DNA from: Escherichia coli
GTDB taxonomy: Bacteria; Pseudomonadota; Gammaproteobacteria; Enterobacterales; Enterobacteriaceae
DNA: 64,000 bases
NCBI RefSeq assembly: GCF_003334765.1
Contig: NZ_QOWT01000021.1
Strand: one strand, 5' to 3'
Under the pieces are notes generated by a model. It saw only the letters and a program-made list of their open reading frames with translations. It ran no database searches and had not been told where the DNA came from. Each line of letters starts with the position of its first letter. Position 1 is the first letter of the stretch. Below are positions 5,463 to 28,932 of this stretch, in pieces. A program made the position numbers and the translations under genes.

Positions 5463-6281
5463 ATGGCTCGTCTGGCAGCATTTGATATGGATGGCACTTT
5501 ATTGATGCCTGACCATCATTTAGGTGAGAAAACCCTCTCTACTTTGGCGCGACTGCGTGAACGCGACATTACCCTCACTTTTGCCACGGGGCGTCATGCG
5601 CTGGAGATGCAGCATATTCTCGGGGCGCTATCGCTGGATGCGTATTTGATTACCGGCAACGGAACGCGCGTGCATTCTCTGGAAGGTGAACTTTTACATC
5701 GTGATGATTTACCTGCGGATGTCGCGGAGCTGGTGCTGTATCAGCAATGGGATACCCGAGCCAGCATGCATATCTTCAATGACGACGGTTGGTTTACCGG
5801 GAAAGAGATCCCTGCGTTGTTGCAGGCATTTGTCTATAGCGGTTTTCGTTATCAGATAATCGATGTCAAAAAAATGCCACTCGGCAGCGTCACCAAGATC
5901 TGCTTCTGTGGCGATCACGACGATCTTACACGCTTGCAGATCCAGCTATACGAAGCATTAGGCGAGCGTGCACATTTGTGTTTTTCCGCCACGGATTGCC
6001 TCGAAGTGCTGCCGGTGGGCTGCAATAAAGGCGCTGCATTGACGGTGCTGACCCAACATTTAGGTTTATCGTTGCGCGATTGCATGGCCTTTGGTGATGC
6101 GATGAACGATCGCGAAATGTTAGTCAGCGTCGGTAGCGGATTTATTATGGGCAATGCGATGCCGCAACTGCGCGCGGAGCTCCCGCATTTACCGGTGATT
6201 GGACATTGCCGAAATCAGGCTGTCTCTCACTATTTGACGCACTGGCTGGACTATCCACATCTACCTTATTCCCCCGAATAA
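5463..6281 (+). CDS. cof: HAD-family HMP-PP phosphatase Cof
   Basis: ATG at 5463 ([14 protein letters not shown].., HAD DxDGT motif) within ORF 5451..6281; followed by strong hairpin+T8 terminator. Confidence 0.9.
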
Positions 6282-18759: not shown

Positions 18760-19263
18760 AACGCGTCCCCTTCTTAGCGGTTGAACTAACGGACACCTTT
18801 CGGGATGGAAAAAACTTACTGACCTGGACTTGCCCTCTCGTTTGTTAGCTTAACTATAAGCCACTCTTTGCAGGTTTTCATCGCATTATTACGAAAAATT
18901 ACAATTAGGAAGGAAGCGGGACAGGACTCACTTTTTCATACTAGCACTAACCCGCAGCAGGTAAAAGCAGTTTGCTCGAACTATTCATAACATTTCAGGA
19001 TTATCGCCAGATGAAATTGGTGACACTAATACCAGGATTGCTCTGAATATGACGTAATAACCGAGGAATGAATAAAGAATTACCGCAAATAATTAAGAAT
19101 AGCCTCTAAATGATTATGGATTATTAAATCTATTAGCGCTACTTAATATAAATTAACTAACAATCAGTATTTTTTATGAATTTTATCCGTGGTTAATACT
19201 GGTTTTCGTATGAGATCCTGAGTTGGTGGTTCAATTACTCCTTAATGTTCGTAGGTTATGCAT

Positions 19264-24586: not shown

Positions 24587-27500
24587 ATGACTATGTTCCA
24601 GTATTACAAACGATCACGGCATTTTGTTTTTTCAGCATTTATTGCTTTTGTTTTTGTCTTGTTATGCCAGAACACGGCGTTTGCGCGGGCGTCATCGAAT
24701 GGTGATCTGCCGACAAAAGCGGACCTGCAGGCGCAACTTGACTCACTAAATAAACAAAAAGATCTTTCTGCTCAGGACAAACTGGTGCAGCAGGATCTGA
24801 CAGATACATTAGCCACCCTCGATAAAATCGATCGCATAAAAGAAGAGACAGTTCAGCTACGGCAAAAAGTCGCTGAAGCGCCGGAAAAAATGCGCCAGGC
24901 GACCGCGGCGTTAACAGCACTTAGCGATGTCGATAACGACGAAGAAACGCGCAAAATTCTGAGCACGCTGTCGTTGCGCCAGCTGGAAACTCGCGTTGCC
25001 CAGGCGCTGGACGATTTGCAAAACGCACAAAACGATCTGGCGTCTTATAACAGCCAGCTGGTTTCGTTACAGACGCAGCCCGAACGCGTGCAAAATGCGA
25101 TGTATAACGCTTCGCAGCAGCTGCAACAAATTCGCAGTCGTCTGGATGGGACTGATGTCGGCGAGACAGCCTTACGTCCCAGCCAGAAAGTGTTAATGCA
25201 GGCCCAGCAGGCGTTGCTGAATGCGGAGATTGACCAGCAGCGTAAAAGCCTGGAAGGGAACACCGTCTTGCAGGATACCTTGCAAAAGCAACGTGATTAC
25301 GTGACGGCGAACAGCGCTCGTCTGGAGCACCAGTTACAACTGTTGCAAGAAGCGGTAAACAGCAAGCGCCTGACTTTAACCGAAAAAACGGCGCAGGAAG
25401 CCGTCTCCCCGGATGAAGCCGCGCGTATTCAGGCTAATCCGCTGGTGAAGCAGGAACTGGAAATTAACCAGCAGTTAAGTCAGCGTCTGATTACCGCGAC
25501 TGAAAACGGTAATCAGTTGATGCAGCAAAACATTAAAGTCAAAAACTGGCTGGAGCGGGCGCTGCAATCGGAACGCAATATTAAAGAGCAGATTGCCGTC
25601 CTGAAGGGCAGCCTGCTGTTGTCTCGTATCCTTTACCAGCAACAACAAACGCTGCCCTCGGCGGATGAACTGGAAAACATGACCAACCGCATCGCGGATT
25701 TGCGTCTCGAACAGTTTGAAGTTAACCAGCAGCGTGATGCACTCTTCCAGAGCGATGCGTTCGTCAACAAACTGGAAGAAGGTCACACCAACGAAGTCAA
25801 CAGCGAAGTTCACGATGCGTTATTGCAAGTGGTTGATATGCGTCGCGAATTGCTGGATCAACTCAACAAACAGTTGGGTAACCAGCTGATGATGGCCATT
25901 AACCTGCAAATCAACCAGCAGCAGTTAATGAGTGTGTCGAAAAACCTGAAATCCATCCTGACTCAGCAAATCTTTTGGGTGAACAGTAACCGTCCAATGG
26001 ACTGGGACTGGATCAAAGCGTTCCCGCAAAGCCTGAAAGATGAATTTAAGTCGATGAAAATCACGGTGAACTGGCAAAAAGCCTGGCCCGCCGTTTTTAT
26101 CGCTTTCCTCGCTGGTTTGCCGCTGCTGTTGATTGCCGGGCTGATCCACTGGCGTCTGGGCTGGCTGAAAGCGTATCAACAAAAACTGGCTTCCGCTGTG
26201 GGTTCCCTGCGTAACGACAGCCAGCTCAACACACCAAAAGCGATCCTTATCGACCTGATCCGTGCGCTGCCGGTGTGCCTGATTATTCTCGCGGTTGGCC
26301 TGATTCTGTTGACCATGCAGCTCAACATCAGCGAACTGCTATGGTCGTTCAGCAAAAAACTGGCGATATTCTGGCTGGTGTTTGGCCTGTGCTGGAAGGT
26401 ACTGGAGAAAAACGGCGTTGCCGTACGTCACTTCGGCATGCCGGAACAGCAGACCAGCCACTGGCGTCGGCAAATTGTCCGCATCAGTCTCGCATTGCTG
26501 CCTATCCATTTCTGGTCTGTGGTGGCAGAACTTTCCCCGCTGCATCTGATGGATGATGTGCTGGGGCAAGCGATGATTTTCTTCAACCTGCTGCTGATTG
26601 CCTTCCTGGTATGGCCGATGTGCCGCGAAAGCTGGCGTGATAAAGAGTCGCACACCATGCGACTGGTCACCATTACCGTGCTGTCGATAATCCCGATTGC
26701 GCTGATGGTGCTGACTGCTACAGGCTACTTCTACACTACGCTGCGTCTGGCAGGACGCTGGATTGAAACCGTTTATCTGGTGATCATCTGGAACCTGCTG
26801 TACCAGACGGTACTGCGTGGCTTAAGCGTAGCGGCGCGGCGTATCGCCTGGCGTCGTGCGCTGGCGCGTCGGCAGAATCTGGTGAAAGAGGGCGCAGAAG
26901 GTGCTGAACCGCCGGAAGAACCCACCATTGCACTGGAGCAAGTTAACCAGCAGACGCTGCGTATTACCATGTTGCTGATGTTTGCGCTGTTCGGTGTCAT
27001 GTTCTGGGCAATTTGGTCCGATTTGATCACCGTGTTCAGCTATCTCGACAGCATCACGCTCTGGCATTACAACGGCACTGAAGCTGGCGCTGCGGTGGTG
27101 AAAAACGTCACCATGGGCAGTCTGTTGTTTGCGATTATCGCCTCAATGGTGGCCTGGGCGTTGATTCGCAACCTGCCTGGTTTACTGGAAGTGCTGGTGC
27201 TCTCGCGACTGAATATGCGCCAGGGCGCGTCGTATGCCATTACTACCATCCTTAACTACATCATTATTGCTGTTGGTGCGATGACGGTGTTCGGATCGCT
27301 GGGCGTCTCTTGGGATAAACTCCAGTGGCTGGCCGCAGCATTATCCGTAGGTCTTGGTTTTGGTTTACAAGAAATTTTCGGTAACTTCGTCTCCGGTTTG
27401 ATCATTCTATTCGAACGTCCGGTGCGTATTGGCGATACGGTAACCATTGGTAGCTTCTCGGGGACGGTAAGTAAGATCCGTATTCGTGCGACAACGATTA

Positions 27501-27949
27501 CCGATTTCGATCGCAAAGAAGTGATCATCCCGAACAAAGCGTTTGTTACCGAGCGTCTGATCAACTGGTCGTTGACTGACACTACTACGCGTCTGGTGAT
27601 CCGTCTCGGCGTGGCCTATGGCTCCGATCTGGAAAAAGTGCGTAAAGTGTTACTGAAGGCGGCGACTGAGCACCCAAGGGTGATGCACGAACCAATGCCG
27701 GAAGTCTTCTTTACGGCATTTGGTGCCAGCACGTTGGATCATGAGCTGCGTCTGTATGTGCGTGAACTGCGTGACCGTAGTCGTACTGTCGATGAGCTGA
27801 ACCGTACTATCGATCAGCTGTGCCGTGAAAACGACATCAACATTGCCTTTAACCAGCTTGAAGTGCATCTGCACAACGAGAAGGGCGATGAGGTGACGGA
27901 AGTAAAACGCGACTACAAAGGCGATGACCCGACGCCAGCGGTAGGGTAA
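24587..27949 (+). CDS. mscK: potassium-dependent mechanosensitive channel MscK (KefA)
   Basis: 1120 aa ORF: signal peptide, long coiled-coil periplasmic domain, multiple TMs and C-terminal MscS-like domain. Confidence 0.95.
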   Translation: MTMFQYYKRSRHFVFSAFIAFVFVLLCQNTAFARASSNGDLPTKADLQAQLDSLNKQKDLSAQDKLVQQDLTDTLATLDKIDRIKEETVQLRQKVAEAPEKMRQATAALTALSDVDNDEETRKILSTLSLRQLETRVAQALDDLQNAQNDLASYNSQLVSLQTQPERVQNAMYNASQQLQQIRSRLDGTDVGETALRPSQKVLMQAQQALLNAEIDQQRKSLEGNTVLQDTLQKQRDYVTANSARLEHQLQLLQEAVNSKRLTLTEKTAQEAVSPDEAARIQANPLVKQELEINQQLSQRLITATENGNQLMQQNIKVKNWLERALQSERNIKEQIAVLKGSLLLSRILYQQQQTLPSADELENMTNRIADLRLEQFEVNQQRDALFQSDAFVNKLEEGHTNEVNSEVHDALLQVVDMRRELLDQLNKQLGNQLMMAINLQINQQQLMSVSKNLKSILTQQIFWVNSNRPMDWDWIKAFPQSLKDEFKSMKITVNWQKAWPAVFIAFLAGLPLLLIAGLIHWRLGWLKAYQQKLASAVGSLRNDSQLNTPKAILIDLIRALPVCLIILAVGLILLTMQLNISELLWSFSKKLAIFWLVFGLCWKVLEKNGVAVRHFGMPEQQTSHWRRQIVRISLALLPIHFWSVVAELSPLHLMDDVLGQAMIFFNLLLIAFLVWPMCRESWRDKESHTMRLVTITVLSIIPIALMVLTATGYFYTTLRLAGRWIETVYLVIIWNLLYQTVLRGLSVAARRIAWRRALARRQNLVKEGAEGAEPPEEPTIALEQVNQQTLRITMLLMFALFGVMFWAIWSDLITVFSYLDSITLWHYNGTEAGAAVVKNVTMGSLLFAIIASMVAWALIRNLPGLLEVLVLSRLNMRQGASYAITTILNYIIIAVGAMTVFGSLGVSWDKLQWLAAALSVGLGFGLQEIFGNFVSGLIILFERPVRIGDTVTIGSFSGTVSKIRIRATTITDFDRKEVIIPNKAFVTERLINWSLTDTTTRLVIRLGVAYGSDLEKVRKVLLKAATEHPRVMHEPMPEVFFTAFGASTLDHELRLYVRELRDRSRTVDELNRTIDQLCRENDINIAFNQLEVHLHNEKGDEVTEVKRDYKGDDPTPAVG

Positions 27950-28007
27950 AAACGAAAGGGGGCAACATTTAGTTGCCCCGAGATTGCTAACAAAGTGCGC
28001 GTTGTTC

Positions 28008-28108
28008 ATGCCGGATGCGGCGTGACCGCCTTATCCGGCCTACGAAACCGCAAGAATTCAATATATTGCAGGAGCGGTGTAGGCCTGATAAGCGTAGCGC
28101 ATCAGGCA
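28008..28108. repeat. REP/BIME element (two inverted REP units) in mscK-ybaM spacer
   Basis: ATGCCGGATGCGGCGTGACCGCCTTATCCGGCCTAC and inverted GTAGGCCTGATAAGCGTAGCGCATCAGGCA copies. Confidence 0.75.
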
Positions 28109-28160
28109 GTTTTGCGTTTGCCCGCAACCTTAGGGGACATTTAGCGACCCCATTTATTTC

Positions 28161-28322
28161 TCACTTTTCCGCCTCATCATCGCGCGTTAATTTCTTTTCA
28201 TAATCACGCTTTACAATATCCAGCGCGCGCAGCACGGTACTGGCAGGGATCTGATTTTCCTCCAGCAGCACAATCAAATCGACAGCCAGTTTGACATCGT
28301 CAGGGGCATTTTCCAGTGACAT
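28161..28322 (-). CDS. ybaM: small protein YbaM (DUF2496), 53 aa
   Basis: Not in ORF track (<60 aa). Minus-strand ATG at 28322 to TGA at 28161: [53 protein letters not shown]; 13 nt upstream of priC. Confidence 0.85.
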
Positions 28323-28335
28323 ATTCTCTCCATTG

Positions 28336-28863
28336 CTAGCGGGTTAAACGCGCTAACCTGTTTTCGATTTTTTCCAGCGCATGGCGGCAGCGTGCCAGGC
28401 GCGCTTCATAGGCTTCCACTTCACGATGCAGCGTTTGCTGTTCCACGAGATCGGTCACCCGCGCCAGACGGGCTCTGCGTTCGGCAACCATCTCACGTAG
28501 CCGCCGCTCAAAATCCTGATGCTGAATACGTTTACGCTGCCAGCGGGCAATTTTCGGTGGTGCACTGTCCCACTCGCGCAATGACCAGGCGGAGGCTTCA
28601 CGCGCGATGGCTTCCAGTTGTGCCGCCAGATGTTCCGCCAGCCAGGCCACTTGCGGCAGCTGTTGCTGCTCAACTGCATGACGAAGCGCAGCCAGATTAT
28701 CGCCCGCCTCGTCGAGACAAGCCTGTAGTGTTGTCGCACGAGTCTGAAAAAGATGCCTGTCGAAACGAGCACTTAGCGTGGCGAACTGTGACACCGGGGC
28801 ACAACGCTGACGCAGCGTAGCGAGCTGTCCTTCCAGTTTTTCCAGCAGCAGGGCGGTTTTCAC
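28336..28863 (-). CDS. priC: primosomal replication protein N'' (PriC)
   Basis: 175 aa ORF (GTG start) [40 protein letters not shown].. Confidence 0.92.
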
Positions 28864-28932
28864 GATAAGACCTCAATGAAAATGATAATTGTTATGCTAA
28901 AGTAGCCACTCTGTAAGCTGACAACACTCAAT

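Follow-up and report, generated by a model that had tools for sequence, protein, structure and literature searches.

Whether a minus-strand open reading frame (ORF) of only 53 codons, at positions 28161..28322 of a 64,000-nucleotide stretch of Escherichia coli DNA (the window), is a gene, and if so which gene and with what role, is the question raised by this locus. A first-pass annotation had proposed that this frame is the small-protein gene ybaM, hidden from an ORF track by a length cut-off and situated 13 nt upstream of priC. The ORF listing and the sequence both confirm an ATG start and a TGA stop, and a 60-aa cut-off would indeed drop a frame of 53 aa. The reference annotation NC_000913.3 carries the ORF as ybaM/b0466 ('DUF2496 domain-containing protein YbaM', 490110..490271), and PGAP-annotated genomes name it rsmS ('pleiotropic regulatory protein RsmS'), a name that dates from Monson et al. 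2019 (PMC6418279), ybaM being the older one. The NCBIfam equivalog NF008266 matches the product at 93.2 bits (cut-off 76, E = 6.1e-27), with residues 1-45 aligned to positions 1-45 of the 46 in the profile, and Pfam DUF2496 (PF10689) does so at E = 8.5e-24, with residues 2-44 aligned to the complete model (1-43 of 43). At the level of sequence, HMM cut-offs, size, motif, priC context and coding constraint all place rsmS in this family. Judged on these grounds the ORF is, virtually beyond doubt, the known gene rsmS (ybaM), the distal member of the priC-rsmS operon. The gene is already named and partly characterised and there is no novelty in the ORF itself, and its discovery value is small: ybaM has carried an annotation (b0466) in K-12 ever since that genome was first annotated, and it was named rsmS and studied in 2019.

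The window corresponds to NC_000913.3 461950..525949 save for nine single-base differences, none of which lies at the priC-rsmS locus. The bases that differ from MG1655 are at window positions 5510, 6795, 9284, 12823, 13739, 13812, 33596, 36475 and 56688, and a 1.2-kb piece of the window containing three of these matches several isolates from humans and pigs at 100% identity. Given this identity and the nine differences, the source of the DNA is, as far as its sequence indicates, a close K-12 relative and not MG1655 itself.

The arrangement of the locus bears upon both the expression of rsmS and its likely partners. The coding sequence (28161..28322, minus strand) consists of 53 codons and TGA, and specifies a two-helix small protein of the DUF2496/RsmS family. 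The gene priC (primosomal replication protein N'', 28336..28863, minus strand) is the first of the operon, with the sole known promoter region for rsmS, and its TAG stop (28338..28336) is separated from the rsmS ATG by a 13-nt gap (28323..28335). The distance originally given is thus correct; the term 'upstream' is not, since it followed from plus-strand coordinates, and on the minus, coding strand rsmS follows priC downstream, second in the operon. A Shine-Dalgarno sequence, GGAGAG (28326..28331, minus strand), is contained within the spacer, with GGAG at 28331..28328, 5 nt ahead of the ATG at 28322. [quoted passage not shown] We consider transcription most likely to start at the promoter upstream of priC, with rsmS translated from its own GGAG site in the gap following the priC stop. 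Probably, the transcript would end at a terminator-like hairpin, GGGGCAAC-TAAAT-GTTGCCCC followed by CTTTCGTTTT (27949..27979, minus strand), which was identified in a promoter/terminator scan and abuts the stop of the convergent mscK.

This gene order, with ybaN divergent from priC-rsmS and mscK-acrR convergent with it, is common to Salmonella, Citrobacter and Klebsiella, with priC-rsmS gaps of 13-14 nt and a Shine-Dalgarno sequence (GGAG or GAGG) at the same place; the latter is also kept in the enterobacterial priC-rsmS junctions sampled among the 55 recovered. A scan of one genome per species identified at least 589 genomes with an rsmS relative, of which the best 80, all Enterobacterales, were examined. 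At 76 of these 80 loci a PriC profile placed priC upstream of rsmS in the same orientation, and three of the other four simply lack upstream sequence. The two genes are adjacent in 54 of the best 80, most commonly with a gap of 14 nt, and in 22, mostly from Pantoea and Erwinia, an 81-aa GlsB/YeaQ/YmgE-like membrane ORF intervenes between them (e.g. in Pantoea agglomerans, locus L070, 2096-3156, with 21 further loci alike), as it does in the majority of Pantoea/Erwinia-group genomes. In Vibrio the priC and rsmS frames overlap by 4 nt.

What is known of RsmS function comes largely from genetics in Pectobacterium and Serratia. The gene (ECA1172) came to light through suppression of an rsmB mutant of Pectobacterium atrosepticum (Monson et al. 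2019, PMC6418279); rsmS single mutants produce excess exoenzymes and quorum-sensing signal and are hypervirulent, and overproduction of RsmS has the same effect as its loss, the phenotype being dose sensitive and both changes derepressing targets. The same study names E. coli ybaM as the rsmS homologue. In Serratia, cas genes under RsmA repression are expressed more strongly when rsmS is mutated; mutation of rsmA is epistatic to the remaining mutations tested in the Rsm pathway, and the action of rsmS depends on neither rsmB nor pigX (PMC8450108, NAR 2021). For E. coli, PMC6418279 cites reports that deletion of ybaM lowers fitness under envelope stress (Hobbs 2010), that the stability or abundance of ybaM mRNA is altered in csrA and csrD mutants (Esquerre 2016), and that YbaM interacted with CsrA in one genome-wide yeast two-hybrid screen (Rajagopala 2014), a result which it describes as unvalidated. 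As alternatives to binding of CsrA, its authors suggest that RsmS might alter the stability of RsmA or work through a pathway yet to be discovered.

From this published genetics we propose that RsmS may bind CsrA (RsmA) and aid its repression of target mRNAs, acting apart from the decoy RNAs CsrB/RsmB, so that loss of RsmS would partly relieve CsrA-dependent repression. That RsmS is in this way a cofactor of CsrA is a proposal we regard as evenly balanced; the explanation taken whole, i.e. the identity as rsmS together with the proposed expression and the CsrA-cofactor mechanism, is the best available and in our view a likely one. Literature searches turned up no biochemical demonstration of YbaM-CsrA binding, nor any work in E. 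coli itself on the function of the Csr link; how RsmS acts at the molecular level is a modest and already recognised gap, one that E. coli would be well suited to closing. Precedents exist for proteins, as opposed to decoy RNAs, that modulate CsrA by direct binding, namely FliW in Bacillus and Campylobacter and CesT in enteropathogenic E. coli (EPEC), and it is this kind of role that, by analogy, may apply to RsmS. However, FliW and CesT are larger, of unrelated folds, and antagonise CsrA, whereas RsmS is a putative 53-aa helical hairpin proposed to assist it, and no sequence or fold similarity between RsmS and either protein was found.

Comparison with characterised systems clarifies which properties can be carried over to the E. 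coli gene. In common with RsmS of P. atrosepticum and P. carotovorum (PMC6418279), the E. coli protein is small, matches the RsmS equivalog, contains PF10689 at approximately residues 2-44, and is encoded distal to priC in a priC-rsmS operon, behind a Shine-Dalgarno sequence of its own. The two nevertheless differ in the C-terminal tail and in the spacer to priC (13 nt here, 37 bp in Pectobacterium), and the rsmB-suppressor, virulence and antibiotic phenotypes have been demonstrated in Pectobacterium rather than in E. coli. The orthologous small protein of Serratia sp. ATCC 39006 (PMC8450108) has been placed in the Rsm/Csr pathway, independent of RsmB and PigX/CsrD, by a mutation that raises expression of RsmA-repressed cas operons; this CRISPR-Cas read-out is, however, specific to that organism. 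AcrZ, discussed in PMC6418279, offers a further parallel as a protein of about 50 aa that acts by binding a larger one (as is proposed for RsmS) and was long overlooked by virtue of annotation length thresholds. Unlike AcrZ, a membrane protein that binds AcrB, the 53-residue RsmS is soluble and charged, with no predicted transmembrane helix.

It is possible, if doubtful, that RsmS is a genuine protein whose main partner is not CsrA, for example that it serves PriC-dependent replication restart or a ComFB cyclic-dinucleotide receptor, and that its effects upon the Rsm/Csr pathway are indirect. Linkage of rsmS to priC extends from Escherichia to Vibrio and Pseudoalteromonas, which argues for such a partner, although linkage within an operon may signify co-expression only. 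Direct binding to CsrA is supported by a single two-hybrid hit, and ComFB proteins bind c-di-AMP and c-di-GMP (PMC12313861). In four independent contexts a ComFB gene is found directly upstream of a DUF2496 gene, whereas the rsmS locus of Enterobacterales is without ComFB. The genetics points the other way: in Serratia, rsmA was epistatic to the remaining mutations of the Rsm pathway, rsmS mutants of two Pectobacterium species resemble strains with lowered RsmA activity, and the polar priC insertion was complemented by rsmS where priC alone had failed. A role confined to CsrA nonetheless leaves unexplained both the deep linkage to priC and that to ComFB in some lineages.

The ComFB-domain gene (PF10719) encodes about 90 aa and directly precedes the DUF2496/rsmS homologue in Pseudoalteromonas xiamenensis and in uncultured or metagenomic relatives (L097, 2193-4168; L012, 4000-5171; L004, 220-2292; L007, 1562-2048). 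In three of these contexts (L004-6, L012/13 and L097) it overlaps the rsmS homologue by 4 or 14 nt, and in L007 it lies 28 nt upstream. All of the ComFB proteins so placed begin MKLHDD.HNYYEK, and in most cases priC is situated further upstream, sometimes with a gene of the histone-deacetylase family between. The statement by Monson et al. that rsmS is 'always immediately downstream of priC' (PMC6418279) consequently holds only loosely, since ComFB and YeaQ-like genes can be inserted between the two. A literature search found no paper that ties ComFB to DUF2496, and the best 80 loci, all being from Enterobacterales, provide no taxonomic placement of the ComFB-linked forms. We think it improbable, as a speculation upon ancestry, that DUF2496/RsmS was originally the partner of a ComFB receptor in a priC-(HDAC)-comFB-rsmS operon, from which Enterobacterales and Vibrio lost comFB and kept rsmS joined to priC; were this so, YbaM could be a relic adaptor that links CsrA to the state of second messengers or of replication restart, and not a cofactor dedicated to CsrA. 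The ComFB context is a lead on the ancestry and possible partners of the family, and is not a finding about the window.

Pairwise Nei-Gojobori comparison of Escherichia, Salmonella, Citrobacter and Klebsiella gave dN/dS of 0.07-0.32 for rsmS where dS was unsaturated, and 0.07-0.20 for the neighbouring priC across the same four genera; rsmS is under purifying selection. An exhaustive HMMER search of 1.84 billion cluster representatives returned 181 relatives at E <= 0.001, those listed being short and nearly all of fewer than 100 residues. In an alignment of 66 diverse family members Glu21 (E21) is invariant, and L3, A6, L12, A13, V14, D15, L16, I17, L20, A33, L34 and D40, all of which are present in the E. 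coli protein, are at least 90% conserved. The core of the family is a near-invariant stretch in the first helix followed by VL.AL.IV..D, within a size range of approximately 50-65 aa, and E. coli RsmS conforms to both; the charged C-terminal tail is variable among members. A structure search found no solved structure for RsmS, and an AlphaFold2 model (mean pLDDT 91.9) places helices at residues 8-22 and 27-52, from which the protein is predicted with confidence to fold as a helical hairpin.

That the ORF is instead untranslated, its conserved sequence acting as RNA in the form of a priC mRNA 3'-untranslated element or a 3'-derived small RNA, is on these data very improbable. The position of the gene lends the idea what attraction it has, being short, at the 3' end of its operon and followed by a long structured region bearing REP elements. 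However, the substitutions are mainly synonymous, the frame, start codon and Shine-Dalgarno sequence are kept across genera, and homologues in Vibrio and Alteromonadales retain 43-50% protein identity where the DNA is dissimilar. Furthermore, plasmid-borne rsmS under the arabinose-inducible promoter of pBAD30 complements in Pectobacterium (PMC6418279), and an Rfam search of 27000..30000 returned sub-threshold REP-type matches only, with no family over 28161..28322. That the ORF might be a mere chance frame without function, as frames of 50-120 codons commonly arise by chance in the GC-rich window, can be set aside as already refuted by the conservation, family and genetic evidence (PMC6418279), since the HMM matches, the presence of a 301-nt stretch containing rsmS in 5425 of 5426 complete E. 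coli genomes, the conserved Shine-Dalgarno sequence and the dN/dS of 0.07-0.32 raise rsmS well above chance.

The spacer of approximately 210 nt on the 3' side of rsmS holds palindromes of REP/BIME type (28004..28092, inverted repeats I1 and I2), to which the REP-derived Rfam family naRNA4 gives a sub-threshold match of 35.4 bits against a gathering score of 59.5. A degenerate copy of the terminator hairpin (GGGGTCGCTAAATGTCCCC, 28133..28151, minus strand; direct repeat D1, 80% identity over 15 nt) is located 10 nt past the rsmS stop, such that the REP cluster is bracketed by hairpins at 27959..27979 and 28133..28151. The mscK-rsmS spacer (27949-28160) is polymorphic, given that coverage of positions 28100-28400 falls below 80% in 1365 of 5425 E. 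coli genomes. It measures about 1 kb in Salmonella and Citrobacter, the Citrobacter copy including an Rpn/Transposase_31 gene.

The same spacer illustrates why an ORF of 53 codons is by itself no proof of a gene, as the 2.5 kb around rsmS holds several spurious ORFs that are about as long or longer. One of these, a 62-aa REP-derived frame with an ATG start (28015..28203, plus strand), runs antisense across the 3' end of rsmS. A 60-codon filter thus conceals a conserved regulator yet displays a spurious ORF of 62 codons beside it; ORF length alone is on this account a poor filter, whilst conservation, the Shine-Dalgarno sequence and family HMMs part the real from the spurious cleanly.

The suggestion that further genes of fewer than 60 codons might be hidden likewise, e.g. 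within the leader of tomB or between fsr and ushA, gained no support from annotation or from a re-scan of intergenic sequence for short ORFs with ribosome-binding sites. NC_000913.3 annotates no other CDS below 60 aa within the window, the other small annotated features being ffs, chiX and the 70-aa CopA(Z) frameshift product. The scan covered ORFs of 10-59 codons in all 48 intergenic regions (6222 nt), using a 4-nt core as the Shine-Dalgarno test, and gave 196 start/ORF combinations, only five of which have both ATG and such a core. None of these five is on the tomB strand of the tomB leader or in the fsr-ushA spacer; one, of 11 codons, is in the tomB-acrB spacer on the strand opposite tomB.

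The sole ATG ORF on the tomB strand of the leader (18816..18881, minus strand; 21 codons) has no Shine-Dalgarno sequence and was rejected as a gene, Klebsiella having GTG in place of ATG and a stop after four codons. A non-coding block, TAATTGTAATTTTTCGTAATA (18887-18907, minus strand), in the tomB-hha leader/promoter is invariant between E. coli and Klebsiella amid diverged sequence and is probably an operator or promoter element; conservation in the tomB leader is regarded as non-coding because this block neighbours an ORF that is broken in Klebsiella. Two ORFs of 61 and 29 codons in the fsr-ushA spacer were likewise rejected, having no family match, and NCBIfam returned no match for the 21-, 61- or 29-aa ORFs or for the 62-aa REP-derived ORF.

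Published ribosome-profiling data provide some minor observations. The main text of Weaver 2019 (bioRxiv 10.1101/511675) contains no mention of ybaM, tomB, ushA or fsr. Ribo-RET initiation peaks from strain BL21 (Stringer 2021, 10.1101/2021.07.02.450978, Table S1) were examined for plus-strand rows, BL21 coordinates being window positions plus 430995; the row for rsmS initiation would be a minus-strand one near BL21 459317, outside this set. Among the plus-strand rows is a weak peak (score 1.1) at window 28316-28339, assigned to a GTG that opens a seven-codon ORF (VTYSLHC) exactly antisense to the junction of the priC stop and rsmS start; it is probably noise. An initiation-enriched footprint of score 7.1 falls upon an ATG-TAA at 42774..42779 (plus strand; BL21 473769) in the fsr-ushA spacer, which is a start-stop site and not a protein gene, and which could be regulatory for expression of ushA or fsr; no other published signal was found for this spacer. 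Finally, Table S1 places a GTG initiation peak (score 2.5) inside ybaQ, at window 46560-46610 (plus strand), with a 16-aa product, VAEYLARREERAKKVA, that ends at the ybaQ stop.
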